From sequence record MZ501051: DNA of 50,126 bases. The stretch is one strand, 5' to 3'. Shown here one piece after another: positions 609-48,609 of this stretch. Below the pieces are notes generated by a model, which was given only the letters and a program-made list of their open reading frames with translations, did not search any database and was not told the DNA's origin. The position numbers and the translations under genes are program-made. Position 1 is the stretch's first letter, and the number at the start of each line of letters is the position of its first letter. Source of the DNA: Escherichia phage AugustePiccard.

Positions 609-2177
609 ATGGCTAATTTAATCTGGGAAGAAATGACAAGTCAGGAGAAATTAGCCGTTAAAGCTATCTCAGAGCATAGTTTTGAGGGCTTTTTAAGGTG
701 TTGGTTTTCAATAACACAAGGCGAGCGATACATACCTAACTGGCATCACAAGTACCTGTGTAGAATCATTGACGAGATTATCGCAGGGGAACGTAAGGAC
801 ACCATCATCAACATAGCGCCGGGCAGCGGAAAGACAGAAATCGCTTCAATCCACTTCCCTGCCTACTCTATGGTTAAGCTGAAGAAGGTGCGGAACCTTA
901 ACATCTCCTTTGCTGACTCACTGGTTAAGCGTAACTCGAAGCGCGTACGTGACCTTATCAAATCTCAAGAATTTCAATCACTCTGGCCATGCAAGTTTGG
1001 AACGTGCAAAGACGATGAACTTCAGGTTCTTGATGAGAATGGCAGGGTTAGATTTGAGTCAATATCAAAGGCGGCGGGAGGTCAGATTACAGGCGCTCGA
1101 GGTGGCTATATAACAGAAACATACAGCGGGGCCGTTCTATTGGATGATTTCGACAAGCCGGCTGACATGCTTTCTCAGGTTTATCGAACGAATAATCACG
1201 TAATGCTCAAGAACACAATTCGCTCACGTCGAGCTAGCTCTGTGAAAGGCAAGGCAACGCCAATAATTTCTATACAGCAGCGACTCCATGTGAATGATAG
1301 CACTTGGTTCATGATGGAAGGTGGTATGGGTATTGACTTCGACTTGATTAAGATACCGGCATTGGTTACTGAGGATTACATTGATTCACTTCCTGACTGG
1401 ATTAAAGAGCAGTTTGCTGATGACGTACTAAGTAGCGAATATATTGAGCGAGATGGCGTAAAATACTACAGTTATTTCCCTAAAAAGGAATCTGTAAACG
1501 ACCTAGTGGCAATGTGGGATAGTGACCCGTACACATTCCTTAGCCAGTATCAGCAGGAACCTGTAGCGCTCGGCGGCAATCTGATTAACGTGGATTGGTT
1601 CCAGAGAATCAGCGATACGTTCAGACCTCCAGCTAAATATGACTATCGATTCATAACTTGCGACACTGCGATGACTACAAAGAGTTATAGTGACTTCTCT
1701 GTACTTCAATTGTGGGGCTATAAAGATGCCAAGATTTACCTGATAGACCAGCGTAGAGGTAAGTGGGAGGCGCCGGAGTTGGAATCTGAACTACTGGATT
1801 TCGAGAGGAAATCAAGAGCAACCAGTCAGACGGATGGTATCCTTAGAAAGATTATCATCGAGAAGAAGGCTTCCGGAATTGGCCTAATTCAATCCGCAGG
1901 TAGAGTTATGCGAACACCGATAGAGCCATATGTTCCGGATAACGACAAGCTAACCAGGATAATGAGCGCCCTGCCGCAGATTAAGGCTGGTAACGTCGTT
2001 CTTCCAGAATCAGCACCGTGGCTAAATGGATTGCTTACGGAGGTTGCGGCTTTCACCGCGGATGACTCTCATAAGCACGACGACCAAATTGACTGTCTAA
2101 CAATGGCGGTAAACCTTGTTCTCAATATAGCAGATGATCCAAAATCAAGAATGCTTCGCCTTGCCGGAATAAAATAG
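609..2177 (+). CDS. terL: terminase large subunit
   Basis: 522 aa; Walker-A-like NIAPGSGKTEIAS; C-terminal nuclease-like acidic residues; first gene of the morphogenesis block. Confidence 0.8.
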   Translation: MANLIWEEMTSQEKLAVKAISEHSFEGFLRCWFSITQGERYIPNWHHKYLCRIIDEIIAGERKDTIINIAPGSGKTEIASIHFPAYSMVKLKKVRNLNISFADSLVKRNSKRVRDLIKSQEFQSLWPCKFGTCKDDELQVLDENGRVRFESISKAAGGQITGARGGYITETYSGAVLLDDFDKPADMLSQVYRTNNHVMLKNTIRSRRASSVKGKATPIISIQQRLHVNDSTWFMMEGGMGIDFDLIKIPALVTEDYIDSLPDWIKEQFADDVLSSEYIERDGVKYYSYFPKKESVNDLVAMWDSDPYTFLSQYQQEPVALGGNLINVDWFQRISDTFRPPAKYDYRFITCDTAMTTKSYSDFSVLQLWGYKDAKIYLIDQRRGKWEAPELESELLDFERKSRATSQTDGILRKIIIEKKASGIGLIQSAGRVMRTPIEPYVPDNDKLTRIMSALPQIKAGNVVLPESAPWLNGLLTEVAAFTADDSHKHDDQIDCLTMAVNLVLNIADDPKSRMLRLAGIK

Positions 2178-2217
2178 CACTTTATGCAAAGAATAAAGCT
2201 CACGGATGAGCTAACAT
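2173..2217 (+). promoter_or_regulatory. degenerate box promoter upstream of HNH copy 1
   Basis: AATAGCACTTTATGCAAAG; the TAG is the terL stop codon; weak -10. Confidence 0.3.
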
Positions 2218-2239
2218 AATCAAAACAAGAGTGGGTGTT

Positions 2240-2716
2240 ATGAATTGGGCTGAATTTTTTAGATACGAAGATGGAAATCTGGTAAGGGTTACCACAACCT
2301 CAAGTAGAGCTATTGAGGGCATGGTTGCTGGAAGCTTGTCTGGCAATGGCTATCTGCACATAAGAATAGGCGACAGGCGTGTAAAAAACCATCTCATAAT
2401 TTGGGAGATGCACAATGGAAGGATACCAGAAGGGATGGAGATAGATCATATCAATCACATAAAGACAGATAACAGGATCGAGAATTTAAGGCTCGTAAGT
2501 CACAAACAGAACCTATCAAACGCATCTCTTAGGTCAGACTCGTCAACTGGTGCGAGTGGCGTTAGTTGGAACAGAAACAGGCAGAAGTGGCACGCTTATA
2601 TAAAGTCTAACTACAAGAGGATGCACATAGGATTTTTTGATTCCTTTGATGATGCCGTAGCAGCAAGAAAGAAAAAGGAGATTGAATTGGGATTTCATGA
2701 GAATCACGGAAAATAG
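2240..2716 (+). CDS. HNH homing endonuclease with AP2-like DNA-binding domain (copy 1)
   Basis: Motif IDHINHIKTDNRIENLR plus SGVSW..W.AYI; starts MNW like copies 2 and 3 (track ORF begins at GTG 2231). Confidence 0.8.
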   Translation: MNWAEFFRYEDGNLVRVTTTSSRAIEGMVAGSLSGNGYLHIRIGDRRVKNHLIIWEMHNGRIPEGMEIDHINHIKTDNRIENLRLVSHKQNLSNASLRSDSSTGASGVSWNRNRQKWHAYIKSNYKRMHIGFFDSFDDAVAARKKKEIELGFHENHGK

Positions 2717-2756
2717 CACGAATTGCTAAACGACTAGGCCACGGATGGCGTATAGT
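2711..2756 (+). promoter_or_regulatory. box promoter (palindromic box + 22 nt + -10)
   Basis: AAATAGCACGAATTGCTAAA, 22-nt spacer, TATAGT; leader CAAAACGAGAGGAG. Confidence 0.6.
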
Positions 2757-2787
2757 TACCTTACCAAAACGAGAGGAGAAAAGATAA

Positions 2788-3168
2788 ATGACAAAAAAAT
2801 CAAAGGCTGTATATCTTGGCAACACCGAAGGAGAGTATTATGGTTTCACTGTAGGGAATGAATATGATGTTCACAATTATGAAACTGAAGATAACTTCAT
2901 TGGTACTTTTGGTGATGATGGTGGTTATCGTCACATCAAGAACGGAGCATTCCACAAGTTCGAACTCCTCGAGGATTATGATTTCGTAACTGAAAGCGAA
3001 TGCGCAGTCATGCCCCTTAGTTCCGATAAACAACCAGAGCTTAGATATTTCATAAACGGTCATGAGTTTAATAAGATTGAGTTCGAAAATGTGCGCTATA
3101 CTGTAAATCAACTTGATGAGGGCGGCGTAAAATGCGACACAATCAAGTTCGAAGTAAAATTCGAGTAA
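2788..3168 (+). CDS. hypothetical small protein (moron; paralogue of 17915..18232)
   Basis: Own box promoter and conserved leader; shares GEY.FT.G..Y pattern with ORF 17915..18232; followed by a terminator. Confidence 0.6.
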   Translation: MTKKSKAVYLGNTEGEYYGFTVGNEYDVHNYETEDNFIGTFGDDGGYRHIKNGAFHKFELLEDYDFVTESECAVMPLSSDKQPELRYFINGHEFNKIEFENVRYTVNQLDEGGVKCDTIKFEVKFE

Positions 3169-3189
3169 CCACAAAAGCTATGATAAACT

Positions 3190-3212
3190 AGCCCCCACAT
3201 GGGGCTTTTTTA
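3190..3212 (+). terminator. rho-independent terminator
   Basis: Hairpin GCCCC-ACAT-GGGGC plus T6. Confidence 0.7.
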
Positions 3213-3225
3213 TTGGAGAAACACA

Positions 3226-5625: not shown

Positions 5626-6132
5626 ATGGCAATTCGTTCCGTAGCACTGGCTGGTATGGTTTCTGATACCTCTCTGTACAACATCGACGGCGCTTGTGTA
5701 GTTGGTGGCATTGCTGCAATTCCAGTTGGCACTGCAGTTCGCGTAACAACAGCTCAGCCTATTGATGGGCACAAGGTTGTAGTTAACACTGGCATCTCAG
5801 CAGATGAAACACCGTATGGTGTTGTAATTCGCTCCCATTATGAAACTCCTGATGGAACCGCTAAGGCACAGGAAGCAGTTAACGTAATGACTCATGGCCG
5901 AGTGTGGATGCGCGCAGCGAGCAACGTAACCGCTGAGTCTGTAAAGGTTGGTGCGGCTGTTAGTATTAGCGCATCTGGTCTCGTTGATACTGGCGGCGTT
6001 GGCAAGCCTAACTGGACTTACGCAGGTGGTTTTATTTCTAATGCCGTAACCAACCCTCAAGCCAATGACTTCGATCAGCAGGATACTAGCGTTGATGGCG
6101 CCCTGGTTGAAGTGCAGATTCGTCAGGCATAA
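5626..6132 (+). CDS. head-associated protein (possible decoration protein)
   Basis: 168 aa, Gly/Val/Thr-rich, strong RBS AAGGAG; sits between scaffold and capsid genes. Function by position only. Confidence 0.35.
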   Translation: MAIRSVALAGMVSDTSLYNIDGACVVGGIAAIPVGTAVRVTTAQPIDGHKVVVNTGISADETPYGVVIRSHYETPDGTAKAQEAVNVMTHGRVWMRAASNVTAESVKVGAAVSISASGLVDTGGVGKPNWTYAGGFISNAVTNPQANDFDQQDTSVDGALVEVQIRQA

Positions 6133-6165
6133 TCAACTGTTGCAGCTTAATAATTAAGATACATA

Positions 6166-6190
6166 AAGCCTCCTTCGGGAGGTTTTTTTA
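6166..6190 (+). terminator. rho-independent terminator
   Basis: CCTCC-TTCG-GGAGG plus T7. Confidence 0.75.
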
Positions 6191-6243
6191 CGCCTATAAT
6201 CTGTTAACATGGGGTTCCATAAACGCATAAAGGAAACTTAATA

Positions 6244-7533
6244 ATGAACTTTTTAGATTTAGTCAGAAAGCAATACGATAGCGGAAAGGTTAGTCTTTCA
6301 GGAGTAAAGGTTAGCACTGACTTCACAACCACTTCATTAATTCAAGCAGCAACGACAATAGCTAACCCAGTCACTCACACCCGCAAGGATGAAACTAAAT
6401 TTAAGTTTACCACTTACGGGCTGGCTGATGTTTCCGGCGGCTCCTATACTGGGCAGTCGCCAAATGGCGTGCAAATGAAAATTGAGTTCATGACTGACGC
6501 GCTTGTCTTTGAGTTCAAGACTATCGGCTCTATCGGTACGTACTCTGTATTTGTTGATGGAGAGCTAACCAATATTGATGCAATCTCAACTCCTAACGGT
6601 CAAGCCGTTACTTACGTAAGAACCGAAGCCTCAGATGGCGTAATTAAGAGAATGAGACACGTCGAGATTTATGGGGTGAACACTTCATTCGGCGGGTTGT
6701 TTACCGACGCTGCGGATACGGTAACCAGCGAAATCACCATCGATCCAAAACCTTTTATCTACCAGATGGGTGACAGTTACACGTACGGCACTGGCGCAGG
6801 CTACGTAACTCAGGCATACGGCTCATCCCCAGCGATTAACGATTTCTACGTGTTCAGAAATGCGCTAGGCATGGACGGCATCGCGGAAGGTATCGGTGGT
6901 AGCGGATGGAACAGCACGGGCGGGCAAGTTCCGGCCTCAAGGTTGCAAAACAGACTGCTTAAGATGAATCGCAAGCCAGATGTTGTTAGTTTCGCTCTCG
7001 CATACAATGACGCTGCGGCTATTAACACTGGAACTAACGCAAGCAAACTAGTTACCTCGATGGGTGACGCGCTAAAGGTTGTCCGAGATGCAATGCCTGG
7101 CGTTCCTGTTATTCATGTTAGCTGTGCCACGCCAAAAGGAATCACCACGCAAATTCAGAGAGTCATAGACCTTACTCATGATTTTTGCGCAAGAAATGAC
7201 ATTCCCGTGATTGGGATTAGTAACTACGTGACTGCGGCGAACAGCATTTCATACACTGGAACGGATAACGTCCACCCAAACCCTCTGGGGCACGAATTCC
7301 GCGGTTTAGCTATGGCAAGGGAGTCATTAATGGCGGCGCTGGAAGGTCGTAGCCTGGTGCCAGAAATCAAACCCAGCGGTTTCACTGTAACTTACATTGA
7401 GCGACTCCGCTTCGCGGTTGATGTTAAGCGTGAGGTTGTTCAAGCTAAAACCGCAGATGAGGCATACTGGATGGTTAAATCTCGGGAGTACAGCAATCCA
7501 GACTTGAGAATCGAAATCATTTCTGTAGCATAA
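6244..7533 (+). CDS. SGNH/GDSL-family hydrolase (esterase) domain protein
   Basis: GDS block [11 protein letters not shown] and catalytic DxxH block [12 protein letters not shown] in the C-terminal half; flanked by terminators inside the head module. Confidence 0.6.
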
Positions 7534-7537
7534 CAAC

Positions 7538-7562
7538 AAGCCTCCTTCGGGAGGTTTTTTAT
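7538..7562 (+). terminator. rho-independent terminator
   Basis: CCTCC-TTCG-GGAGG plus T7; near-identical to the terminator at 6166. Confidence 0.75.
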
Positions 7563-7615
7563 TAACCTTAACTCTGTTAGACTTATTAGGTCTATTAACC
7601 AATCAGGAGATTAAG

Positions 7616-9049: not shown

Positions 9050-9129
9050 CAAAAAGCCCACCATTGCGTGGGCTAAAAACTCGTGTATAATGAACCCGTA
9101 GACACCTAACTGAAAAGGAACAATAAAGA

Positions 9130-12749: not shown

Positions 12750-12793
12750 ATAGCACTTTTTGCCAAAGATCTTATTCAACTTTGCTGTATAGT
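12750..12793 (+). promoter_or_regulatory. box promoter for the tail-module lipoprotein
   Basis: ATAGCACTTTTTGCCAAAG, 22 nt, TATAGT, leader CATCGAAACGAAATGAGAG. Confidence 0.55.
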
Positions 12794-12826
12794 TACCTCA
12801 TCGAAACGAAATGAGAGATTAAAGAA

Positions 12827-13213
12827 ATGAAAGCAATCATCGCAATTATGGCAACCTTGTTACTCGCTGGCTGTAACTCAGATAAGGTAAAGACACTTAA
12901 CGTTGATCTGGCATCAAACGAATGCAAGAACATCGTATACAACGCGACGGTTAACAATGAATCATTTACTCAGCTTTCATTCAAACACCCAGAGCTCAAA
13001 GATGCCGTTATGTACGTGGCGCACATTGAATGCACGAAATCTGTTAACAATTTTACCCGCGGCGTTGTAGTTGAGCACAACACAACATTGGCAAAAGTAT
13101 CAAAGCCTAGTGACGCTTCAATCGCGATGGTTTATACTAATATCTACAATTTAGAAGGTTTCGCTAAGGAAGTTGGCGAGAAGCTGGCTTACTCACGCGT
13201 TGTTATGAAATAA
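12827..13213 (+). CDS. lipoprotein (moron in tail module)
   Basis: Signal peptide with canonical lipobox LLAGC; own box promoter and leader; inserted between major tail protein and chaperone genes. Confidence 0.65.
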   Translation: MKAIIAIMATLLLAGCNSDKVKTLNVDLASNECKNIVYNATVNNESFTQLSFKHPELKDAVMYVAHIECTKSVNNFTRGVVVEHNTTLAKVSKPSDASIAMVYTNIYNLEGFAKEVGEKLAYSRVVMK

Positions 13214-17884: not shown

Positions 17885-17914
17885 TACTTCATCGAAACGA
17901 GAGGAGATAAATAA

Positions 17915-24390: not shown

Positions 24391-24436
24391 ATAGTATCGC
24401 ATCCTTGCGATCAGTGTTTAGCAATTCGTGCTATTC
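24391..24436 (-). promoter_or_regulatory. box promoter for the Cor-like lipoprotein
   Basis: Minus strand: GAATAGCACGAATTGCTAAA, 22 nt, TACTAT, CCATCGAAACGAAACG; the box encodes the methyltransferase C-terminus N-S-T-N-C-stop. Confidence 0.6.
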
Positions 24437-25136: not shown

Positions 25137-25181
25137 ATTATACCGCGCAAAATTTATTGTTCTTTGGCAATTCGTGCCATA
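25137..25181 (-). promoter_or_regulatory. box promoter for the methyltransferase-like gene
   Basis: Minus strand: GGCACGAATTGCCAAAG, 22 nt, TATAAT, leader AACGAGAGGGG. Confidence 0.55.
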
Positions 25182-25388
25182 TCAGATTTTAAATTCTTCA
25201 TAGTTGTTGTTGATAATCAGGCAGTGATAACGGATCAATTCAATGCGTCTCTCTCCGTGATTTAAAGCATTCTCGGCGCATCTTTCCTGATACTCAGCCC
25301 AAGCCTTATCTCGGTCTATTGTTGGCTCCGTGGCGATTCTGAGGCCCTTTGGTGTGGTGATTACTACCTGATAGAGTAAGTTGCTCAT
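25182..25388 (-). CDS. hypothetical protein
   Basis: 68 aa, RBS AAGGAG. Confidence 0.45.
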   Translation of the reverse strand: MSNLLYQVVITTPKGLRIATEPTIDRDKAWAEYQERCAENALNHGERRIELIRYHCLIINNNYEEFKI

Positions 25389-26408: not shown

Positions 26409-26455
26409 AATATAACTAAAGATACCCAGTTGTCTTTAGCAATTAGTGCTATTTA
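26409..26455 (-). promoter_or_regulatory. box promoter for the Rha gene
   Basis: Minus strand: AAATAGCACTAATTGCTAAA, 22 nt, TATATT. Confidence 0.5.
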
Positions 26456-31947: not shown

Positions 31948-31965
31948 ATAGCACGAATTGCTAAA
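31948..31965. promoter_or_regulatory. palindromic box copy upstream of the tail fibre gene (orientation ambiguous)
   Basis: ATAGCACGAATTGCTAAA only about 25 nt from ATG 31924, with no correctly spaced -10 on the gene side. Confidence 0.35.
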
Positions 31966-31988
31966 GTGGATTGTATCATCTTTAGGGC

Positions 31989-32012
31989 ATAAAAAAACCT
32001 CCCGAAGGAGGT
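31989..32012 (-). terminator. rho-independent terminator (minus strand)
   Basis: CCTCC-TTCG-GGAGG followed by T7 on the minus strand. Confidence 0.7.
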
Positions 32013-33462: not shown

Positions 33463-33936
33463 TTAATCTTTAGCTTTTCGTGCTGCTTCGTTAGCTGCCT
33501 TAATCTTGCGCCACGATCGACACTCTGGCTTGGTGGCCAGTTCAGCCTCAGTTACCACACGCAGCATGTGACGTTTTTTGCAGCGTAGAGTTAGTGGTTT
33601 TCCGTTACCGTCGAATTGCAGGTCTGGTCTACAGAATGTGGCGCGAAAACCTTCTCCGGTTCGTTTGTAGTAGTTGTGCGACAGTTGAGCGCCACGTGCA
33701 GAAATCATACCACGCTTAAACCACTCTTCTACAGCCTGCGGCGTTACCTTTAACTGCTTTGCGATATTCGCCTTTGTGCCGAAGAAATCAAGAATCATCT
33801 CTAACCTTGCGCGTAACCCAGCCCTTACCTCATCTTTCAAAACGTAGTAACCTGAAGGTCGCTTTCGCTGCTTTTTATCTTCAGTGCGGATGGTTCCGTT
33901 ATTGCCGTTAATGGTTCGCTTGTCAATTGTACTCAT
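33463..33936 (-). CDS. HTH DNA-binding protein (putative transcriptional regulator)
   Basis: Helix-turn-helix-like segment TKANIAKQLKVTPQAVEEWFKRGMIS; basic protein; first gene of a leftward block. Confidence 0.5.
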   Translation of the reverse strand: MSTIDKRTINGNNGTIRTEDKKQRKRPSGYYVLKDEVRAGLRARLEMILDFFGTKANIAKQLKVTPQAVEEWFKRGMISARGAQLSHNYYKRTGEGFRATFCRPDLQFDGNGKPLTLRCKKRHMLRVVTEAELATKPECRSWRKIKAANEAARKAKD

Positions 33937-34037
33937 TTCATTACCTCGATAGCATTTTTTGTTAAAAGTCATTCTGATTTGATGGTAGTATTGTACTCAA
34001 TTAAACGCTACAAGACAATTTTTATAGGAATTTAGAT

Positions 34038-36032: not shown

Positions 36033-36448
36033 ACATAACAGATAAAGAAGATTACATTGAGTTTTACCCGGGCCCGGTTAAGTATTGCCCTAAAGAGGAT
36101 GACGAGCAAATCTTTTGCTCTGATTGGGTTAAGTATCATTACCCTCAGATTGTTTACTGGCACACGGTTAATGAATCGATGAAGACCATTGGACAGGCAA
36201 GAAAAGACCAGGCCAAAGGTTTGCTTAAGGGGGTTTCGGACTGCTTATTCCTGATACCTGAATCACTTCGTGGTAAATACCCTTTTGGAGCCATAGAGCT
36301 AAAAAGGGCCGGGAAGACGCAGGCGAGTCCAGTCAGCGACGAACAGAAGTCCTTCCTTAAGAGCGTCAGAGAATCGGGCGGCTTCGGGGCTGTAGCTTAC
36401 GGACGTGAGGGTTTTCTTGCGGCATTCAAAGAAATGATTTCAAAATAG
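36029..36448 (+). CDS. VRR-NUC domain nuclease
   Basis: Motif DCLFLIPE...GAIELKRAGK (D..E.K core); overlaps helicase stop (ATGA). Confidence 0.55.
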   Translation: MNITDKEDYIEFYPGPVKYCPKEDDEQIFCSDWVKYHYPQIVYWHTVNESMKTIGQARKDQAKGLLKGVSDCLFLIPESLRGKYPFGAIELKRAGKTQASPVSDEQKSFLKSVRESGGFGAVAYGREGFLAAFKEMISK

Positions 36449-36488
36449 CACGAATTGCTAAAGACGTTTCGGTGAGTTGGTGTATTAT
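36443..36488 (+). promoter_or_regulatory. box promoter
   Basis: AAATAGCACGAATTGCTAAA, 22 nt, TATTAT, leader TTCATCGAAACGAAACG; the TAG is the VRR-NUC stop. Confidence 0.6.
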
Positions 36489-36526
36489 CTATTCATCGAA
36501 ACGAAACGCACAAAGAGAGAAACAAA

Positions 36527-36817
36527 ATGGCTACTATCTATACTGGTAAATTCTACGAATCACGCAAAACTGGTTATGAGTATGAATTAGTAATAACCCC
36601 AGAAGGTTATGTACTTGATGATGGTGAAGGGTACGCATTCGAAGTTAGCCCGACTTACAAAGATGATTTAGAAACTGTTAAAAACGCATTTGGCGAAAAA
36701 TTTGATGTTATTGATGATGGTGATGGCTACGCATTCGAAGTTAGCCCAACCTACAAAGATGATTTAGAAACTGTTAAAAACGCATTTGGCGAAAAAATTG
36801 ATGAGGTATCAGAGTAA
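36527..36817 (+). CDS. hypothetical small acidic protein with internal 32-aa tandem duplication
   Basis: Box promoter and leader; DDG(E/D)GYAFEVSPTYKDDLETVKNAFGEK occurs twice. Confidence 0.6.
   Translation: MATIYTGKFYESRKTGYEYELVITPEGYVLDDGEGYAFEVSPTYKDDLETVKNAFGEKFDVIDDGDGYAFEVSPTYKDDLETVKNAFGEKIDEVSE
36618..36809 (+). repeat. 96-bp tandem duplication (2 copies) inside ORF 36527..36817
   Basis: Two near-identical units starting gatgatggtga(a/t)gg(g/c)tacgcattcgaagttagccc... Confidence 0.75.
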
Positions 36818-37038: not shown

Positions 37039-37226
37039 TTGGAATCTGCGTAAAAACAAATGGACGCTTTACACTGCTCGAGGATTACGAAATCAACTTT
37101 GATTCAGGCGGCGCAATAACAGTAAAAGGAGAAGATGAATTACATTGGTTCCTTAGTTATCAAGGTGATGGCTACTACGGTTGCACGGATTGCTACGGAA
37201 AAGAAGTTAGCTTCTTAGTAGAATAG
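37035..37226 (+). CDS. hypothetical protein
   Basis: ATG 37035 with RBS GGAGGA; ATGA overlap with upstream stop. Confidence 0.45.
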   Translation: MIGICVKTNGRFTLLEDYEINFDSGGAITVKGEDELHWFLSYQGDGYYGCTDCYGKEVSFLVE

Positions 37227-37266
37227 CACTTTTTGTTAAAACTCAAATCCAGGGATGGATTATATT
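37222..37266 (+). promoter_or_regulatory. box promoter (variant box)
   Basis: ATAGCACTTTTTGTTAAA, 22 nt, TATATT. Confidence 0.5.
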
Positions 37267-37296
37267 AAGCACATAAACAACGAAGAGGGTTAAGAG

Positions 37297-37422
37297 ATGA
37301 AAATTGTAGACAAAGAGATGTTCGAGATCGCACAAGCATACGCAAATGACGCAGTTAAAACTGGTTCGGAATACTGCTGGATGTGCGCTAAAGAATACCT
37401 GAAAATGGCTTACGGGTTATGA
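37297..37422 (+). CDS. hypothetical small protein (41 aa)
   Basis: Downstream of a box promoter; RBS AAGAGGG; ATGA overlap with next gene; below the ORF-track size cutoff. Confidence 0.35.
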   Translation: MKIVDKEMFEIAQAYANDAVKTGSEYCWMCAKEYLKMAYGL

Positions 37423-39135: not shown

Positions 39136-39179
39136 ATAGCACCTTTTGTTAAAACAGTAGCCGCGAAAGCGGCTATTAT
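39133..39179 (+). promoter_or_regulatory. box promoter upstream of HNH copy 3
   Basis: AAATAGCACCTTTTGTTAAA, 22 nt (contains hairpin GCCGCGAAAGCGGC), TATTAT. Confidence 0.55.
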
Positions 39180-39207
39180 TGTTTTATACAAACGATAGGA
39201 GATTGAA

Positions 39208-39693: not shown

Positions 39694-39737
39694 ATAGCAC
39701 TTTTTGCCTAACCCATGCCGTAGAAATGCGGCATAAT
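39693..39737 (+). promoter_or_regulatory. box promoter (variant)
   Basis: AAATAGCACTTTTTGCCTAA, CATAAT, leader CACATCGAAACGAG. Confidence 0.5.
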
Positions 39738-39778
39738 CACCACATCGAAACGAGATTAACTAAACGAGGAAACGCAAG

Positions 39779-39955
39779 ATGACTAAAATGATTTATTGCA
39801 CCAAGAACAACTCCAAGACTCTGCCATTTACAGTCAACAATCCGTATAACGCAGAGTACCAGGGTGATGGATATTACAAGATTTATGGCGACGATATGAC
39901 GCACATCTTAGCACCGATTGATGGTTCGCTGGTTGAATTTATTATCGCAGACTAG
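39779..39955 (+). CDS. hypothetical small protein (58 aa)
   Basis: Box promoter and conserved leader upstream; below the ORF-track cutoff. Confidence 0.4.
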   Translation: MTKMIYCTKNNSKTLPFTVNNPYNAEYQGDGYYKIYGDDMTHILAPIDGSLVEFIIAD

Positions 39956-41511: not shown

Positions 41512-41514
41512 TCA

Positions 41515-43098
41515 TCACCCCAGCAGTCGTGGATTAATGTAAACTTTATCACCAATCAGGCATGTATAGTTTTTCTCATCTAACATCGGCAGCAAGTGGT
41601 CTTTAATCTTTGTCATCACTCCAGCCTGAGACTCGAACGGCTTAACCTTGCGCGCAGCCTCATACAATGAACGAATGCCAACTACGCCTTTCCCGTTCTT
41701 TCCTTGCTTGATAAGGATATCAATCAGCTTATTCATCTCGGCATTGTCGCCAGCGTGACCAGCGGCGTTAGCAGATGACAGATAAGTCTTGCTAAGCTCC
41801 TGGAACATGATTACAGCCTCTTGCATTGTGTCCAGTCCAATCTCTCTGGACTTCTGCGGGCTTCCGCCATTTGGGTTAAACCAGTTACGGACAGTGTGAA
41901 TAACTGCGGCAATCCTGATAGCCTGCTTATCGAACTTGCCCAGCGCGCCGCGCAACATAGTATGTGAATACTTACCGCCATCAGCAAGATGGGGCTCCAT
42001 TTCCTGACGTGCACGGTTGAGATATTTCATCGCTGAGTTACTCACTGTCAGCTTTACTTCCTGCTCGCTCATGATTTCGTGAACCAAGCGGAAGTAGTCA
42101 GCCTTCAGTCCGCTGTCAATTGGCTCGTATGTTGACTCTCCATTCTCATCAACGAATACACGTTCGCCCAGGAAGGACTTTTCACGCACAAGCAGAAAAC
42201 GCTCCGACACACCGATACCACGCGCACCAGCATTCATAATGGCGTTGATTGTTTCGTCCTGCGCAATTACCGAGATGCAACCCATAGCAACGAAACTCAT
42301 GTTGTTCTCTGCGTTCGCACGCGCGATAGATACGTTACCAGCATCCCATGCTTTAAGCACGAGTTCACTGTTTGTTTTCTTTGAGCCATCTCCATAGGTC
42401 ATGCCCAGAAGTGAGTTCACGCTCGTCGCCTCATCCGAGATTACTGCGAAGTTTCCCTGGCGGTTGTTTATTCGCGCAAGTCCCTCAGGCGTGGTGTCGG
42501 ATACGGGGAAAACGATATCGCATAGCTTCTCGAGTTTCTCCTCCAACTCCTCTTTCTCTTCAAAAAGTGAAGCCATCTCTGAAGGAGATTTTTCCTGCTT
42601 CATCTCTTTGGATAATGCAGATAGTTTGGCCATAATCTTTTTGCGCTCGCGTTTTCGCAATTCATTTAGTCGCTCAGTCTCGGCAATCATCGGGGCAATA
42701 GAAAGTGAGTTAATCGCTGATTTACCGGTCGATGGAGGTTGACTTGTAACTACGTAAAGAGATGTTGGCTGCTGCGTTCCGTGATACTCAACAGTAAAGC
42801 GGCCCAGCATAGCAGCGGAAATGCAACCCAAAAAGTGCATATAAGCTGAAGACTCCGGGAACTGAACAGAACGAGCAATGTTGGCTGACAGTCTACCAAC
42901 AACGTCAACATCATTTCCGAGCGAGATTACAGGATACTTGTCATTGGCCGCATCAATCTCGACCGGTGCTTTCCAGAATGACTGAGACTGGCGATAGCCA
43001 TTAGCATTGATAGCCACGCGCAGGGGTGGGAGGTTTTCTGCGGCAGCTATTGCCATAACTTGTTCAACAGATAGTTTATCTTCGTTGAAATCAAACAT
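41515..43098 (-). CDS. large hypothetical protein with deviant P-loop (replication-associated?)
   Basis: 527 aa; P-loop-like PPSTGKS; N- and C-terminal segments paralogous to ORF 45945..46469; RBS GGAGAG. Confidence 0.55.
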   Translation of the reverse strand: MFDFNEDKLSVEQVMAIAAAENLPPLRVAINANGYRQSQSFWKAPVEIDAANDKYPVISLGNDVDVVGRLSANIARSVQFPESSAYMHFLGCISAAMLGRFTVEYHGTQQPTSLYVVTSQPPSTGKSAINSLSIAPMIAETERLNELRKRERKKIMAKLSALSKEMKQEKSPSEMASLFEEKEELEEKLEKLCDIVFPVSDTTPEGLARINNRQGNFAVISDEATSVNSLLGMTYGDGSKKTNSELVLKAWDAGNVSIARANAENNMSFVAMGCISVIAQDETINAIMNAGARGIGVSERFLLVREKSFLGERVFVDENGESTYEPIDSGLKADYFRLVHEIMSEQEVKLTVSNSAMKYLNRARQEMEPHLADGGKYSHTMLRGALGKFDKQAIRIAAVIHTVRNWFNPNGGSPQKSREIGLDTMQEAVIMFQELSKTYLSSANAAGHAGDNAEMNKLIDILIKQGKNGKGVVGIRSLYEAARKVKPFESQAGVMTKIKDHLLPMLDEKNYTCLIGDKVYINPRLLG

Positions 43099-43172
43099 TA
43101 TTTCTCTCCGTGCTGATTCTGAGCGGTCATTATATCAACGACCGCTTATAATTCATTATCAATTTTTGCTAT

Positions 43173-43523
43173 TTACAGGTATTTCGCTTCAAATAGGTAA
43201 GTCTGACACAGGGTGTAAAAACCAACATCTTCACTGCGGTAAAGCTGCCAAGCATTGCCATCCTCATCGTAAATGTAACCGGCAGATTGACCAAGACCCG
43301 CGTGAAGATTTACCTGGTAACGTTTATTTTCTTTAAAGTCTTTTTTAACTCCTGACTTGTGGTTAACCTTTGTGCAGTAAAGCGTTTTGGTCTTAATGTA
43401 TTTGCCACGCTCTTCGAGGTTAATCCATTTGCCATCTTTCTTGATTTGCTCTGCACCATCCTTAACGCGAGCTTTGTACAATACGTTTTCGTTGCTAATC
43501 CAGTTTTTAGTTGTTGTTGTCAT
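43173..43523 (-). CDS. hypothetical protein
   Basis: 116 aa; box promoter and conserved leader upstream on the minus strand. Confidence 0.5.
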   Translation of the reverse strand: MTTTTKNWISNENVLYKARVKDGAEQIKKDGKWINLEERGKYIKTKTLYCTKVNHKSGVKKDFKENKRYQVNLHAGLGQSAGYIYDEDGNAWQLYRSEDVGFYTLCQTYLFEAKYL

Positions 43524-43560: not shown

Positions 43561-43607
43561 ATATACAGGAAAAGCCCCCGAAGGGCTTTATCAATTAGTG
43601 CTATTTC
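43561..43607 (-). promoter_or_regulatory. box promoter with terminator hairpin in the spacer
   Basis: Minus strand: AATAGCACTAATTGATAAA, 22-nt spacer holding hairpin AGCCCTTCGGGGGCT, TATATT, leader CATCTCATCGAAACGAAAT. Confidence 0.5.
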
Positions 43608-44796: not shown

Positions 44797-44823
44797 ATCT
44801 ATACCCTCGTTGTTGATGAGCTA

Positions 44824-44870
44824 ACTATACCCTCAACAGCCGCGCTTGTCTTTAGCAAAAAGTGCTATTC
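44824..44870 (-). promoter_or_regulatory. box promoter for the leftward small-gene block
   Basis: Minus strand: GAATAGCACTTTTTGCTAAAG, about 23 nt, TATAGT, leader CATCAACAACGAGGG. Confidence 0.55.
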
Positions 44871-44895
44871 GTTAGATTTATGGATTGTTGCGGAT

Positions 44896-44939
44896 ATTGC
44901 AATGATTCCCATGATTATTGCACATATAGCAATATTGCT
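44896..44939. promoter_or_regulatory. cluster of short palindromes (ATTGCAAT, AGCAATATTGCT) in divergent region B
   Basis: Perfect palindromes sharing the TTGC/GCAA half-site with the promoter box. Confidence 0.4.
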
Positions 44940-45150
44940 TCAGATGCAATGATGTTTTTGATTGTTGCGAAATGAGCAATAAAGTAGTGAGTGAGTGAAT
45001 GAAAGATGGATGGACTACCATACAAGTTGATTTTGATTCTGCTAATCCATTTTCACGCTTACACGTAACGCCCGTAGCGCGATGTAAGCCAACGCCTATC
45101 GTTACGCGAGTTACGCGCAGCTACGCCTAGACTTACACTATAAGTGCCTA

Positions 45151-45200
45151 ATATATATATATATCTTCTTTCTATTATTATTATTATTATTATTATTATT
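45151..45200. repeat. microsatellite (AT)7 ... (ATT)9 in divergent region B
   Basis: atatatatatatat then (att) x9. Confidence 0.85.
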
Positions 45201-45405
45201 GTATGTAAGTCATGTAACGGGGTTTCCGGCGATATCTATATGTTTTTTCCTATCAGTTATAGCCTTGGCTATAATTTAAGGTATGGAGTGGGTGTTTTGG
45301 GGCCATTTGCCTCGTTACACGCACGACACGCCACTTACATTAAGCTATAGCTGGGCTAGCATACCATTTCGCGTAACGACCCCCAAAAGTTACCAAAAAT
45401 TACAC

Positions 45406-45434
45406 TTGACTACATGTGTAAGTCGGGATATGAT
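45406..45434 (+). promoter_or_regulatory. canonical sigma70-like promoter (TTGACT-17-TATGAT)
   Basis: TTGACT 45406-45411, 17-nt spacer, TATGAT 45429-45434, then leader AAACGAGAGGAG. Confidence 0.5.
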
Positions 45435-45465
45435 GGACTCAACTTAAACGAGAGGAGTGATAGAG

Positions 45466-45945
45466 ATGAACGAGAAAGTAACATTGGGCCAAGTGATTCG
45501 TGAGATGGTGAAAGCAGCGCTTAAGTCTGAGGACAAGCAGATCAGCGTGACACTCAACAAGATTGAGAGCCTTATCGGCGCCGAGGAGGGTGGTCTAAAT
45601 AAGCTTAAGAGCTCATACATCTACAATACAACGGCTCGCATGCCTGAGTTGAGAGATGCCGGACTGAAGGCGACTCACCACTATGATGAAGAAAGGGGTG
45701 TTAATGAATATACTGGGAGTGAGATACTTGGAGACAAAAAGCTTGTTATTAAACTAATTCCAGGCTCGGCAAACATTGGAATCAGGAAGAAGACCAACGA
45801 CGCGATCAAGGATGAGGCAATCACTGAGTTCAAAGCCAGGATTTCTAAGGTGATGCCAGACCTTTCTGCGTATGAAGGTGAGGCCCTTGCAGCCGCTATG
45901 AAGGCCATTAAGGATTACCGTTTGATTATTGAGGAGATTAAGTGA
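45466..45945 (+). CDS. hypothetical protein
   Basis: ATG 45466 after leader AAACGAGAGGAG; canonical sigma70-like promoter upstream. Confidence 0.5.
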   Translation: MNEKVTLGQVIREMVKAALKSEDKQISVTLNKIESLIGAEEGGLNKLKSSYIYNTTARMPELRDAGLKATHHYDEERGVNEYTGSEILGDKKLVIKLIPGSANIGIRKKTNDAIKDEAITEFKARISKVMPDLSAYEGEALAAAMKAIKDYRLIIEEIK

Positions 45946-46469
45946 TGTTTGACTTTAACGAGGATAAACTGACAGAAGAGCAGGTAATTGAGATAGCCAA
46001 GCAAGATGGGCTGCCGCCGCTGCGAATTGCAATCAATGCTAACGGGTATCGACAGTCAACGGCGTTTTGGGGCTCGATTGATACCTCAGGGGTGTATAGT
46101 GGTGATGAGCTTGGTGTAATGATTAAAATCATCAGGAAAATGGGAGTTAACGGCAAAGGAGTTGTTGGCGTCAGGTCTCTATATGAAGGTGCTCGCAAGC
46201 TGAAACCATTTGCGGGGCGCGATGGGATGATGCTACTGATTAAGGATAAGCTAATTCCAGAGCTCGACAAGATGAATATCACGTGCCTCATTGGCGATAA
46301 GATTTACGTCAACCCTGCCTTGACGGATTTAAGCTGGCATCCTAACTTCAAAACTTACGAAGGTGAGCACGCTAGTAGACTACCATACCACTTGCGGTAC
46401 ACTGAGGAAGAGGTGGAGAAGGCTATTGAGTTCTATCGGAAAGCTAAATCACTAATTATCGCCAAATAG
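45945..46469 (+). CDS. truncated paralogue of the 527-aa protein (N- and C-terminal modules only)
   Basis: N-terminus MFDFNEDKLTEEQV...LPPLRIAINANGYRQS and the segment NGKGVVGVRSLYEGARKLKPF...NITCLIGDKIYVNP align to the termini of ORF 41515..43098. Confidence 0.6.
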   Translation: MFDFNEDKLTEEQVIEIAKQDGLPPLRIAINANGYRQSTAFWGSIDTSGVYSGDELGVMIKIIRKMGVNGKGVVGVRSLYEGARKLKPFAGRDGMMLLIKDKLIPELDKMNITCLIGDKIYVNPALTDLSWHPNFKTYEGEHASRLPYHLRYTEEEVEKAIEFYRKAKSLIIAK

Positions 46470-46509
46470 CACGAATTGCTAAACAATGGATCGGGTAGTC
46501 AGCTATGAT
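46464..46509 (+). promoter_or_regulatory. box promoter
   Basis: AAATAGCACGAATTGCTAAA, 22 nt, TATGAT, leader TTCATCGACAACAAAGAGG. Confidence 0.6.
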
Positions 46510-46533
46510 TACTTCATCGACAACAAAGAGGAA

Positions 46534-46746
46534 ATGAAGATGAAAAACGTTATTATTGAAGATATTCACTTTGACCAAGCTGAGGTAGGAATCGCAAAAA
46601 GCGTTCGCGGAAACGTTGTATATCTGAACTTCGATCCAGATAACTACGGGGACGGCCAGACACTGATGCAGTACAGTCCTGAGCAAGCACGCAAACTGGC
46701 GGCGGCGTTAATCATGGCAGCGGACGAGGCGGAGAAGCAGCGATAG
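46534..46746 (+). CDS. hypothetical small protein
   Basis: ATG after box promoter and leader (CATCGACAACAAAGAGGAA). Confidence 0.45.
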   Translation: MKMKNVIIEDIHFDQAEVGIAKSVRGNVVYLNFDPDNYGDGQTLMQYSPEQARKLAAALIMAADEAEKQR

Positions 46747-46786
46747 CACGAATTGTTAAAAAGGGATTCATCCTGACTGGTATAAT
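46743..46786 (+). promoter_or_regulatory. box promoter upstream of the long kinase leader
   Basis: ATAGCACGAATTGTTAAA, 22 nt, TATAAT. Confidence 0.6.
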
Positions 46787-47001
46787 CCCCACATCAACAA
46801 CGAGACACTACTTATCAGGTATGTGACTATGGCGATAAAGTCCATGCCGGACTAGGTTCGCACGGCGTCGATAATAAGTGACAATATACGAACATAAATT
46901 CAGCAGCAGGGGTATTGATATGCTCCTGCACTATTTAGACGAAAAATACGCAAATCTCATGCTTAAGACGCATGGTGGCAAAATAACGAGGATTAACATA
47001 A

Positions 47002-47616
47002 ATGGCTAAAATCATCATTCTTAATGGACCAGCTGGAGTGGGCAAAGACACTATCGGAAACGCGTTACACTATGATTACCGATGTATACAAACAAGCTTT
47101 AAGCGTCCAATGTTTGAAATTGCCGAGTCAATCCTGGGGGCCGGGGCGTTCAGTAAGTTCATCACGGCTTATGATGACCGAGATCAGAAAGAGATGCCTC
47201 AGAGCTTCCTTGGTGGCAAGACGTGCCGCGAGTTCATGATCTGGATTAGCGAGTCGGTAGTCAAGCCGCTATTTGGCAATCAGCAGTTCGGTAAGCTAAT
47301 GAGCGAACATATCAAGCTGTGTGACGAAGGATTAACGTTCGTTTGCACTGATGGCGGTTTCGCTGATGAAGTTATCCAGCTTGTTGAAGATGGTCACGAT
47401 GTTACGCTGGTGCGACTTTTTATGGAAGGCAAGACCTTCGCAGGCGATAGCCGTAATTACATCCGAATCAAGGAATCGCACTTCCCTGATTATAAAAAGT
47501 ATCAGGAGCATAGCGTTCGCCTGGTTAATGGTGACATTGGTGGCGGCGTATTGGCGGTGGCTGAGGCTTGCGGACTAACCTCAGATTACGAATGGGTAGA
47601 CGATATTCCCTGGTAA
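47002..47616 (+). CDS. P-loop nucleotide kinase (dNMP-kinase-like)
   Basis: N-terminal P-loop IIILNGPAGVGKDT, as in phage dNMP kinases; about 200 aa. Confidence 0.5.
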   Translation: MAKIIILNGPAGVGKDTIGNALHYDYRCIQTSFKRPMFEIAESILGAGAFSKFITAYDDRDQKEMPQSFLGGKTCREFMIWISESVVKPLFGNQQFGKLMSEHIKLCDEGLTFVCTDGGFADEVIQLVEDGHDVTLVRLFMEGKTFAGDSRNYIRIKESHFPDYKKYQEHSVRLVNGDIGGGVLAVAEACGLTSDYEWVDDIPW

Positions 47617-47660
47617 ATAGCACGAATTGCTAAACCCGCTCCGGCGGGTTTTGTTATAGT
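47615..47660 (+). promoter_or_regulatory. box promoter with terminator-like hairpin in the spacer
   Basis: AAATAGCACGAATTGCTAAA, spacer CCCGCTCCGGCGGGTTTTG, TATAGT. Confidence 0.6.
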
Positions 47661-47689
47661 TAGTTCACACCAAACGAGAGGTAAGAGAA

Positions 47690-47908
47690 ATGATTACGAT
47701 TAACCTGTCAGACAAGCAAGCCGCCGAACTCAAGTCCATGTTGTCAATATTTGAGAAGCCAAATGACCGAGCAATTGCAAAAGAGGTCATGACTCAAATC
47801 AATAATCAGCAGTTCGACGTAAGTGACTTCGAGTCATCACGGCAGTACGAGGCGCTTAGTGTTAATGCGGCATACCTGACCAACTGGGATAAGGCGACTA
47901 AGAAATGA
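47690..47908 (+). CDS. hypothetical protein
   Basis: 72 aa after box promoter and leader. Confidence 0.45.
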   Translation: MITINLSDKQAAELKSMLSIFEKPNDRAIAKEVMTQINNQQFDVSDFESSRQYEALSVNAAYLTNWDKATKK

Positions 47909-48042
47909 TTTACATCCACACGTACTACACTGGCAAGTTTAACAGTGTTAAGCACATTAGTGTTCACGATACGTACGATAGCGCAAAGGCTCAGTGGTTG
48001 GTTCTTGGCGGCGATATTAATTCATATAGAGTTGCTGAATAG
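47905..48042 (+). CDS. hypothetical small protein (45 aa)
   Basis: ATGA overlap with upstream stop; its stop TAG is part of the next box. Confidence 0.3.
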   Translation: MIYIHTYYTGKFNSVKHISVHDTYDSAKAQWLVLGGDINSYRVAE

Positions 48043-48082
48043 CACTAATTGATAAAACAGCATTGGGGTAATTTGCTATAGT
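48038..48082 (+). promoter_or_regulatory. box promoter (variant)
   Basis: ATAGCACTAATTGATAAA, 22 nt, TATAGT, leader CCCCATCGAAACGAGCGAGG. Confidence 0.55.
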
Positions 48083-48112
48083 TACCCCATCGAAACGAGC
48101 GAGGTCAAAGAG

Positions 48113-48292
48113 ATGAGATTCACCCAATCAGAGCCAAAGCTACAGGCCAACCACTTCGATGGCTACGCAACATTCATCATTGCCCAAGCCTGCGGAATGC
48201 GAGACGAGCCTCAGGTTCACACCATTCACTTGACCGAAGAGCAGGCTCGAGAGTTGTCTTACGAAATTCTAGAGCAATTGAATAGAATTTAA
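48113..48292 (+). CDS. hypothetical small protein (59 aa)
   Basis: Box promoter and leader (CATCGAAACGAGCGAGG) directly upstream. Confidence 0.4.
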   Translation: MRFTQSEPKLQANHFDGYATFIIAQACGMRDEPQVHTIHLTEEQARELSYEILEQLNRI

Positions 48293-48343
48293 CGCGTCTA
48301 AAACGCATTCTAACGAACAATAATTTAAGCGAGGTGATTCATC

Positions 48344-48469
48344 ATGGGAGCACAAGAAAGCCCCGTAGAGTGGTGCAAGCGAATGCAGGACGAAGCTAAA
48401 ACTGGCGAAGAGGCGATGGCCTACTACGAGCTGGCGCAAATGTGGATGCAACGGGAGAAGAAACAATGA
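48344..48469 (+). CDS. hypothetical small protein (41 aa)
   Basis: RBS GAGGTG; stop overlaps next ATG (ATGA). Confidence 0.3.
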   Translation: MGAQESPVEWCKRMQDEAKTGEEAMAYYELAQMWMQREKKQ

Positions 48470-48609
48470 GCTTCACTGAATATGTTATAGCATGTGAACG
48501 ACTGGTCTTTGATATGAAAACTTTCCACTGGTTCATAATTAAAGACTTAATAAAGCCTTACAAGCAGGGCGTTACCCCAGAGGCGTTTGTTAAGTCATTC
48601 TACAAATAG
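48466..48609 (+). CDS. hypothetical small protein (47 aa)
   Basis: Translationally coupled; its stop TAG is the TAG of the next box. Confidence 0.3.
   Translation: MSFTEYVIACERLVFDMKTFHWFIIKDLIKPYKQGVTPEAFVKSFYK

Follow-up and report, generated by a model that had tools for sequence, protein, structure and literature searches.

Stop codons in or beside a repeated dyad box at gene junctions of the Rtp-like coliphage AugustePiccard and its relatives

Introduction

In T4-type phages, cassettes called promoter-early stem-loops (PeSLs) run from an upstream stop codon through promoter boxes and a stem-loop to a Shine-Dalgarno sequence and the start codon of the following gene (Arbiol et al. 2010, PMC2839356). 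They are described as sitting before variable ORFans and as mediating modular shuffling (PMC2839356; Comeau et al. 2014, PMC4122927). In this study, we analyzed a repeated 18-bp sequence, referred to as the box, in the genome of Escherichia phage AugustePiccard (sequence record MZ501051). The whole stretch of DNA analyzed, 50,126 bp and called the window below, represents, in full or nearly so, the genome of an Rtp-like coliphage (Drexlerviridae, Braunvirinae), with the small terminase as its first gene. The box usually contains or abuts the stop codon of the upstream gene and is followed at a fixed distance by a predicted promoter element of the next gene. By analogy, PeSL cassettes appear to be the closest described system to these box cassettes.

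As with PeSLs, a short intergenic cassette is present in dozens of copies, reaching from the upstream stop to the next Shine-Dalgarno sequence and start codon; it holds a promoter and a stem-loop located either between the promoter boxes or over the -10 element. PeSLs are also placed before variable small genes, at junctions of insertions, deletions or replacements; the box cassettes show this tendency in part, with the limits on breakpoints given in the Discussion. However, PeSLs have an AT-rich upstream region and promoters that agree with the sigma-70 consensus (-35, about 17 bp, -10), whereas here an 18-bp dyad box of specific sequence takes the upstream place, 22 nt from the -10 element, and the promoter is probably factor-dependent. 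The PeSL stop lies in a generic AT-rich stretch, while the box stop is a fixed triplet of a conserved motif. In addition, the phages concerned here belong to a siphoviral family, the Drexlerviridae, and while PeSLs have demonstrated promoter and terminator activity and form mini-circles, the promoters and terminators of the box cassettes are predicted ones.

At the lambda PRM promoter, cI bound at OR2 acts as an activator near position -42. Morons, defined in temperate lambdoid phages, are promoter-gene-terminator units between two phage genes, usually with diverse host-type promoters; they were reportedly described by Juhala, Hendrix and colleagues in 2000. At the Mu Pm promoter, a Mor dimer binds 5-bp inverted repeats centered at -43.5 (PMC4390567). 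The box promoters resemble Mu Pm/Mor and lambda PRM in having a 5-bp inverted repeat, predicted to lie at about -42, in place of a functional -35 element, and in the presence of a phage-encoded helix-turn-helix protein as the candidate regulator; they further resemble the cI system in that the same operator is predicted to be in a repressing position at other promoters. They differ in number, about 20 promoters per genome versus one or few, and the regulator here, whose match to a Cro-type helix-turn-helix is weak, is not known to be related to Mor or cI. Regarding morons, one unit (17841-18284) alone matches an insertion of promoter, single ORF (open reading frame) and terminator, as seen by comparison with phage JeanPiccard, but the box units all share one phage-specific promoter box.

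We take the box to be, almost certainly, the conserved inverted repeat of phage Rtp. In the Rtp genome paper of 2006 in J Bacteriol, Wietzorrek and colleagues are said to have noted ten conserved inverted repeats upstream of genes and to have proposed them as sites for the protein Rtp52, a homologue of which is encoded in the window. To our knowledge, that work does not deal with the stop overlap, the 20-nt spacing, the stem-loops or a role at junctions. Literature searches yielded nothing relevant for Rtp52, for the box sequence or for start-site and promoter studies of T1-like phages.

Results

The box is a conserved dyad present far above chance

A motif profile built from 178 box instances in ten genomes gave the sequence a(-1)ATAGCAC-[G/T][A/T][A/T]-TTG[C/T]TAAA, or aATAGCAC-NWW-TTGYTAAA in short form, in which positions 1-7, 11-13 and 15-18 are near-invariant and TAGCA-N5-TGCTA forms a dyad. 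With the 18-mer ATAGCACGAATTGCTAAA and at most 3 mismatches, 15 copies were found in the window versus 0.06 expected (about 250-fold over chance), and when weaker copies are included, there are about 22 boxes on both strands. The bare hexamer ATAGCA is not over-represented (43 found versus 32.6 expected; 43 or more were seen in 5 of 100 shuffles); the over-representation is confined to the full box.

Rtp, JeanPiccard, JulesPiccard, RobRod40 and BEK3 share about 85-88% identity with the window, across 60-76% of the window's length. Related genomes carry 13-20 boxes each, counted at a stricter threshold than the 22 of the window, and Rtp (L001) has 18-20 copies of the identical box at junctions orthologous to those of the window. 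The box, its spacing and its relationship to stop codons are common to eight Rtp-like genomes and T1, and the exact 18-mer occurs in more than 120 IMG/VR stretches (contigs of 41-53 kb).

Upstream genes end in or against the box

The box carries TAG at positions 2-4 and, in a second frame, either TAA at positions 15-17 or TGA at positions 12-14. The remaining frame is open through the whole cassette, and genes that arrive in it always bring their own TAA, formed by the conserved AA flank plus one T. Among the 18 boxes of the window that have an upstream gene on the same strand, 16 have its stop codon inside or flush with the box; of the other two, one stop is 1 nt off and one (box 12750) is 36 nt away behind a terminator. 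Four boxes (26452, 31948, 33949 and 44868) have no upstream gene on the same strand. TAG is used by 8 of the 17 genes that end at box junctions versus 3 of the 60 other genes, which otherwise use TAA (36) or TGA (21) (Fisher p = 1.3e-4), and box TAGs make up 8 of the 11 TAG stops in the window.

A first-pass annotation of this DNA had described the box as gene punctuation and had named 12 upstream genes closed by it; the ORF list and the box offsets place all 12 stops where it had put them. They are either TAG at box positions 2-4 (2175-2177, 2714-2716, 36446-36448, 37224-37226, 46467-46469, 46744-46746 and 48607-48609) or TAA flush with the 5' end of the box (17838-17840, 28101-28103, 39133-39135, 39691-39693 and 47614-47616). 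Four more cases were found: TAG 48040-48042, TAA 43173-43175, TGA 43591-43593 and TGA 25182-25184. The same annotation had read the end of a minus-strand methyltransferase-like protein (229 aa) as a translated box, and this is so: the protein ends ...L-A-N-S-T-N-C-stop, which is the box read in the third frame. The boxes and cassettes are as follows:

2174..2240 (+), degenerate box cassette (ATAGCACTTTATGCAAAG, 20 nt, TAACAT) holding the terL stop TAG 2175-2177, before HNH copy 1; alignment A1 shows that the promoter cassette was duplicated here as a whole and has diverged
2713..2790 (+), cassette with consensus box 2713-2730, -10 TATAGT, leader and ATG at 2788; HNH copy 1 stop TAG 2714-2716 inside the box
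12750..12829 (+), box cassette with a terminator before it; major-tail-protein gene stop at 12714-12716, an exception to the overlap
17841-17858 (+), box flush with the TAA 17838-17840 of the gpL-like gene
24417..24434 (-), consensus box; the TAA of the methyltransferase-like ORF (24418-25107) is box positions 15-17
25163..25184 (-), box ATGGCACGAATTGCCAAA; upstream 68-aa ORF with TGA 25182-25184, 1 nt from box 25180
26435..26452 (-), box in a divergent region, preceding the Rha-like gene (25671-26348); TAA flank and TAG intact, stopping nothing
28104-28121 (+), consensus box flush with the exonuclease TAA 28101-28103; -10 TATGAT in the loop of a TGGGG/CCCCA hairpin
31948..31965, consensus box in the second geometry (see below); order on the minus strand: terminator, TGATACAAT, 4 nt, reverse-complement box, Shine-Dalgarno sequence, lateral tail-fibre gene
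33949..33966 (+), box ATAGCATTTTTTGTTAAA in the divergent regulator/helicase region
36445..36529 (+), cassette with consensus box; VRR-NUC stop TAG 36446-36448 inside
37223..37299 (+), cassette with box ATAGCACTTTTTGTTAAA; 63-aa ORF stop TAG 37224-37226 inside
39136-39153 (+), box flush with the TAA 39133-39135 of the 376-aa gene and preceding HNH copy 3
39694..39781 (+), cassette with box ATAGCACTTTTTGCCTAA, flush with the HNH copy 3 stop TAA 39691-39693
43155..43175 (-), box ATAGCAAAAATTGATAAT, flush with the TAA 43173-43175 of the upstream 116-aa ORF and preceding the 527-aa helicase gene
43587..43604 (-), box ATAGCACTAATTGATAAA; the 53-aa ORF stop TGA 43591-43593 is box positions 12-14, in the TTGATAAA variant of the box; terminator-like hairpin in the spacer
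44851..44868 (-), box, first of the leftward small-gene operon, with a 21-nt spacer and no real upstream gene
46466 (+), start of a consensus box; stop TAG 46467-46469 of the 174-aa gene
46743..46800 (+), cassette with box ATAGCACGAATTGTTAAA; 68-aa ORF stop TAG 46744-46746 inside
47614..47692 (+), kinase TAA 47614-47616 and cassette, with consensus box 47617-47634 flush with the TAA, hairpin 47632-47651 and -10 TATAGT
48039..48115 (+), cassette with box ATAGCACTAATTGATAAA; 45-aa ORF stop TAG 48040-48042
48606..48684 (+), cassette with consensus box; 47-aa ORF stop TAG 48607-48609 inside

A predicted promoter follows the box at a fixed distance

The cassette is about 75 nt long and consists, in order, of the upstream stop, the box, a 20-nt spacer (folded in most cases into a stem-loop), the -10 element, the leader, the Shine-Dalgarno sequence and the start codon. 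At every gene-facing box, a -10-like hexamer (TATAGT, TATAAT or TATGAT) follows after 20 nt, rarely 19-22 nt, and the architecture and spacing are fixed in 19-21 sites of the window, in the eight Rtp-like genomes and in T1. A conserved leader, CATCGAAACGAG, also given as tacCtCATCGAAACGAg, comes after the -10 element. At box junctions, stop and start are as a rule 62-85 nt apart, in most cases about 70-75 nt, and the interval is filled with these parts, which bears out in silico the earlier proposal that the gene end and the next, predicted promoter are fused into one unit.

The TTGCTA within the box sits 22 nt from the -10 element, and a sigma-70 scan misses the box promoters. An ordinary -35 function of the box was rejected, as the 22-nt spacer is found nearly everywhere and no -10-like hexamer lies 16-18 nt downstream. 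The canonical extended -10 was also rejected; a conserved TG is present, but 2 nt further upstream than TGn. This TG is located 4-5 nt before the -10 element (spacer positions 16-17 at most boxes; e.g., 2746-2747 and 17874-17875), often in a CACGGATGG-like motif. Sigma-54 promoters have the consensus TGGCAC-N5-TTGC (-24/-12). This type was rejected too, since the TAGCAC-N3-TTGC of the box is 2 nt too short; moreover, 175 of the 178 sites have AG instead of GG, and the -10 hexamer is at a fixed 20 nt after the box. No consensus for IHF or another host factor known to us fits the box on comparison by eye. One canonical promoter without a box, TTGACT-17-TATGAT at 45406-45434, has the same kind of leader and heads the rightward small-gene cluster.

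The spacer region is structured, with a mean minimum free energy of -9.1 kcal/mol in 42-nt windows versus -5.7 kcal/mol for random 42-mers of the genome (p = 1.6e-4). The hairpins fall into two positional classes, lying between the box and the -10 element or carrying the -10 element inside the loop. Two cassette hairpins (39156-39177 and 47632-47651) scored as terminator-like, and a terminator-like hairpin is also present in the spacer of box 43604 (about 43566-43586, minus strand). The cleanest is 47632-47651, where the T-run after the stem opens straight into the -10 element, so that stop, putative operator, terminator and predicted promoter lie within about 45 nt. We rejected the box itself as an RNA hairpin maintained by covariation, as there are no compensatory changes: its right arm varies (C14 to T or A, T15 to C) without a matching change in the invariant left arm.

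A further promoter-like site at 26897-26940 has TATAGT and the leader tatctcatcgaaagc, and the place of the box is taken by the degenerate, 1-nt-longer ATAGGCACAAACGATA. It may be a decayed or variant box before the recombination operon.

The position of the dyad suggests a protein operator

The dyad is centered 30 nt before the predicted -10 element, counted to its first base, and the center would be at -42 if transcription starts 7 nt after the hexamer; the same assumed start puts the box at -50 to -33. Sites of class II activators, such as that of Mor at Mu Pm, are centered in this region, at about -41.5 to -43.5. The box promoters have no functional -35 element at the canonical spacing. 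We infer that the box is an operator for a protein with the dyad centered at about -42. The most probable binder would be the phage's Cro-like helix-turn-helix regulator, the homologue of Rtp52 and T1 gp23, which would recruit host RNA polymerase to promoters without a correctly spaced -35 element. The candidate gene is:

33463..33936 (-), candidate box-binding regulator, 157 aa, phrog_2856 'transcriptional regulator'

This protein has a weak P22 Cro-type helix-turn-helix at residues 47-73.

A second geometry was found at the predicted tail-fibre promoter (31948-31995, minus strand), in which an extended -10, TG-n-TACAAT, is followed by 4 nt and the reverse-complement box. This geometry is kept in all eight relatives, and in T1 with a 5-nt gap; the locus is at 33762 in L001, 28097 in L002, 28466 in L003, 29143 in L004, 27296 in L005, 32098 in L006, 35557 in L007, 30627 in L008 and 34902 in L009. 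Here the dyad lies over the predicted transcription start, where a repressor would be expected. The putative promoter of the regulator gene itself (TTGAGT-18-CAGAAT; 33967-34000, minus strand) shows the same arrangement of -10, 4 nt and box, and this box (33949) is also at about -42 of the divergent helicase promoter. The second geometry thus provides independent support for a protein operator, and the pattern resembles what would be expected of a bifunctional, lambda-cI-like regulator. A weak phrog_2474 match prompted the idea of a MerR-type mechanism, in which a dimer bound to an overlong spacer twists it; this is not favored, as the conserved dyad lies outside the spacer and the dyads within the spacer vary from promoter to promoter.

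The stop triplet is conserved with the motif

In ten complete genomes, the stop is in or flush with the box at 110 of the 139 boxes having an upstream ORF of at least 60 codons. When 498 box instances were pooled and grouped into 160 clusters of unrelated upstream-gene C-termini, 139 of the clusters had the stop in or flush with the box. The observed offsets are -3, -2, +1, +11 and +14, and by majority offset the clusters include TAG at +1 (72), TAA at -2 (12), TAA at +14 (26), stops abutting at -3 (21) and stops further upstream (21). The TAA at -2 is in frame with the box TAG, giving a tandem stop in those 12 clusters. Frame use at the overlaps is skewed to the TAG frame (84 : 30 : 25, chi-square p = 9e-11), and proteins ending at the box TAG often finish in Lys, Glu or Gln (flanks AAA, GAA and CAA). 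In 28 of the 160 clusters, the same gene family has different stop offsets in different phages, indicating that the junction is evolutionarily fluid.

The first-pass annotation had also implied that the TAG exists to punctuate genes. This does not agree with its equal conservation where it stops nothing: TAG is present at box positions 2-4 in 120 of 129 boxes (93%) where it is not a stop, versus 46 of 46 where it is one, and the non-stop TAG is kept in divergent regions, at first boxes of operons and in the inverted box 31948. As the triplet is also part of one arm of the dyad, the mirror of the right arm, it appears to be conserved for the DNA motif and not for translation. Moreover, the distance of the box is rigid to the -10 element and not to any feature of the upstream gene.

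Homology between relatives switches at some boxes

The window was compared with its eight relatives by blastn. The HNH copy 3 unit (39149-39692) is an exact box-to-box period that is missing from five relatives, and in relatives without it, box 39694 directly follows the 376-aa gene (alignment A3). A 68-aa ORF unit (46484-46741, comprising spacer, -10 and ORF) is likewise one box-to-box period, and BEK3 lacks it (alignment A2). HNH copy 1 (2209-2710) is also an exact box-to-box unit, with the entire promoter cassette repeated on either side of it (A1). RobRod40, JulesPiccard and BEK3 are chimeric, in that homology jumps between window cassettes within 13-18 identical box bases (A2, A3); three indels switch homology at or inside the box. 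A moron-like cassette at 17841-18284 (box promoter, 105-aa virion-protein-like ORF and terminator hairpin) starts at box position 1, is inserted exactly between the gpL-like TAA and the Shine-Dalgarno sequence of the next gene, and is absent from JeanPiccard (14925-14940).

On average, the first gene behind a box is present in 4.4 of the eight relatives versus 6.3 for other genes (p = 0.011), and genes present in at most four relatives make up 11 of 21 first genes versus 13 of 56 others (p = 0.025). An estimated 3.5% or so of the genome lies in box cassettes (22 x about 80 nt), but 25 of the 115 breakpoint clusters fall there, and of the 90 variable segments, 34 have one or both ends in a box cassette. 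Breakpoints were seen in 2.95 relatives per box junction versus 1.56 per non-box junction (p = 0.02).

The proposal that the boxes serve as junctions for modular exchange, with variable genes behind them and breakpoints within them, is therefore upheld in part. The exact box-to-box units and the more variable first genes agree with it, and some breakpoints do fall in boxes, but their enrichment over other long intergenic junctions is not significant and most variable segments ignore the boxes. The comparison partly supports the view that the boxes are real and sometimes exact exchange points, presumably a substantial minority of the module boundaries, and not a general rule.

Three HNH_3-family endonuclease genes are present (2240-2716; 32932-33411, minus strand; and 39208-39693), with Pfam E-values of 3e-21 to 5e-18. 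Copies 1 and 3 are missing from most relatives, and in T1 a near-identical promoter cassette (T1 box 41956) precedes an HNH gene.

Discussion

The overlap of stop codons with the box is a real feature of genome compaction, far beyond chance, although it will not surprise a specialist. The simplest reading is that it results from compaction against a stop-bearing motif and has no separate function. In a compact genome, the upstream ORF would run up to the fixed motif and be closed by whichever stop the motif offers, or alternatively by a private TAA flush with the box, made from the A-rich 5' flank and a single T. The overlap would then be a by-product of a motif in which two of the three frames contain a stop, and the TAG frame would be favored because no extra codons are needed. 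As every cassette opens with the same stretch of about 18-60 nt, gene units with box promoters, namely the HNH genes, small ORFs and the moron-like virion-protein gene, could be gained or lost by recombination in or beside the boxes, presumably mediated by the phage's own RecE/Erf system. We consider this explanation as a whole (an operator cassette, stops as by-products, and boxes at some module boundaries) to be probable.

Several points weigh against it. The link between the regulator and the box is one that we infer, in part from the proposal reported for Rtp52 in 2006, and the -42 position depends on a predicted -10 element. The TAG frame accounts for 60% of the overlaps versus 33% under a 'mechanical' model with random frames, an excess that implies some selection on gene endings at the box, which could be simple economy. 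With regard to exchange, 56 of the 90 variable segments (62%) have neither end at a box, and of the 115 breakpoint clusters, 51 are intragenic and 31 are at non-box junctions. A breakpoint is present at 16 of 22 box junctions versus 27 of 54 non-box junctions (Fisher p = 0.08), and the excess in breakpoint counts is lost when the comparison is made with non-box junctions having a spacer of at least 40 nt (p = 0.18). HNH copy 2 (32932-33411) and a 3-kb insertion (5908-9058) have no box boundaries. Furthermore, variable genes that carry their own promoter would yield breakpoints next to boxes without any recombination mediated by the box.

Other explanations must be weighed against the same data. 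A coincidence or annotation artefact, with ATAGCA merely containing TAG, has next to no probability and is already refuted by the counts: although the bare hexamer is not over-represented and frame use in the window alone is not significantly non-uniform (9 : 6 : 2, p = 0.11), the full 18-mer family exceeds chance about 250-fold, the stop is in or flush with the box at 16 of 18 same-strand junctions, TAG is enriched there (8/17 vs 3/60, p = 1.3e-4), and the pattern recurs in T1, eight relatives and 160 independent gene clusters. Very unlikely, in our opinion, is selection of the box as translational or RNA punctuation, by which a UAGCA...UGCUA hairpin plus stop in the read-through mRNA would end translation, flag a site for processing or uncouple the ribosomes from the cistron that follows. 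The preference for the TAG frame (84/139 clusters, p = 9e-11), the tandem TAA-TAG stops in 12 clusters and a dyad able to form a 5-bp RNA hairpin are all compatible with such a role; however, the TAG is equally conserved without an upstream ORF, at divergent boxes and at the inverted tail-fibre box, the variation of the right arm is uncompensated in the left, and the fixed distance of the box is to the -10 element and not to the upstream gene.

If the box were primarily a recombination site (integron-attC-like or a homing-endonuclease target) with a secondary promoter role, one could readily understand the box-to-box indels with crossovers at or inside the box, the boxes flanking two of the three HNH_3 endonuclease genes, and the variability of first genes behind boxes. 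This is nevertheless unlikely. No site-specific recombinase was found among the annotated features of the eight relatives and T1 (the window's own proteins were not searched), 62% of variable segments have no box end, and six of 22 box junctions, including those before conserved helicase genes, have no breakpoint in any of the eight relatives; in addition, an endonuclease with a 20-copy target would shred its own genome, and the rigid spacing from box to -10 together with the downstream leader indicates transcription. Finally, the box might be a repressor operator or a host-factor site that times or silences promoters driven by their -10 elements, as suggested by the dyad over the predicted start at two promoters and by a Cro-type helix-turn-helix similarity that suits a repressor equally well. 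But at about 20 promoters the predicted end of the box is at -33, before the region melted by polymerase, and those promoters have neither a usable -35 element nor a canonical TGn extended -10; the E. coli genome reportedly has only one such repeat, according to the 2006 account of Wietzorrek and colleagues, which is cited against a host regulon. We find this alternative doubtful but worth keeping in mind, and it bears on the sign of action of the box, not on the stop-codon finding.

Returning to the operator cassette with by-product stops, a joint and more far-reaching reading would be that the cassettes are active, recombination-proficient mobile units across the T1 superfamily, with RecE/Erf continually excising units of box, promoter and gene and inserting them between the roughly 20 boxes, possibly with packaged mini-circles as for PeSLs, and with the box TAG/TAA selected since whatever gene lands upstream is closed in two of three frames. 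We regard this as speculative and rather improbable. If true, an operator for a transcription factor would also serve as a cassette junction, much as in an integron, and would bring its own stop codon.

The idea of cassette boundaries, which is partly right, has a clear precedent in the PeSLs, and current understanding is not overturned. The data hint that the PeSL concept of repeated regulatory cassettes as shuffling points can be extended from T4-type myoviruses to an unrelated siphovirus family whose promoter type is probably factor-dependent. For annotation, a single 18-base motif shows gene ends, predicted starts of transcription units and many accessory-gene boundaries in T1/Rtp-like phages, which are common in therapy and as fermentation contaminants, and it accounts for most of the rare amber stops. 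In amber-suppressor hosts, proteins ending at the box TAG would be extended. For engineering, the boxes could be used as natural portable 'stop plus promoter' junctions at which genes are swapped with their neighbors undisturbed.

Other features of the genome

The 3-kb insertion at 5908-9058 lies in the head-gene block and is absent from most relatives. At the DNA level, none of the eight relatives has its 429-aa gene (6244-7533), and one has its 477-aa gene (7616-9049), for which the counterpart in RobRod40 carries a tail-fibre annotation.

A non-coding divergent region of about 670 nt (44797-45465) separates the leftward small-gene cluster from the rightward one. It holds GTTACGCGCA-like repeats (45101-45126), a (TA)n run and a (TAT)9.3 array that is perfect (45173-45200), and the scan placed its single canonical sigma-70 promoter here (45406-45434). 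This region could have origin, packaging-site or early-promoter functions.

The 174-aa gene at 45945-46469, termed a 'mini-paralogue', matches phrog_7327 and in part the C-terminal part of the DNA-helicase family phrog_2373, in keeping with either a fragment or a paralogue of the gene for the 527-aa helicase (41515-43098). A single-copy tRNA-Arg gene (49558-49635) with the anticodon TCT, which reads AGA, is also present, and the relatives likewise have one.

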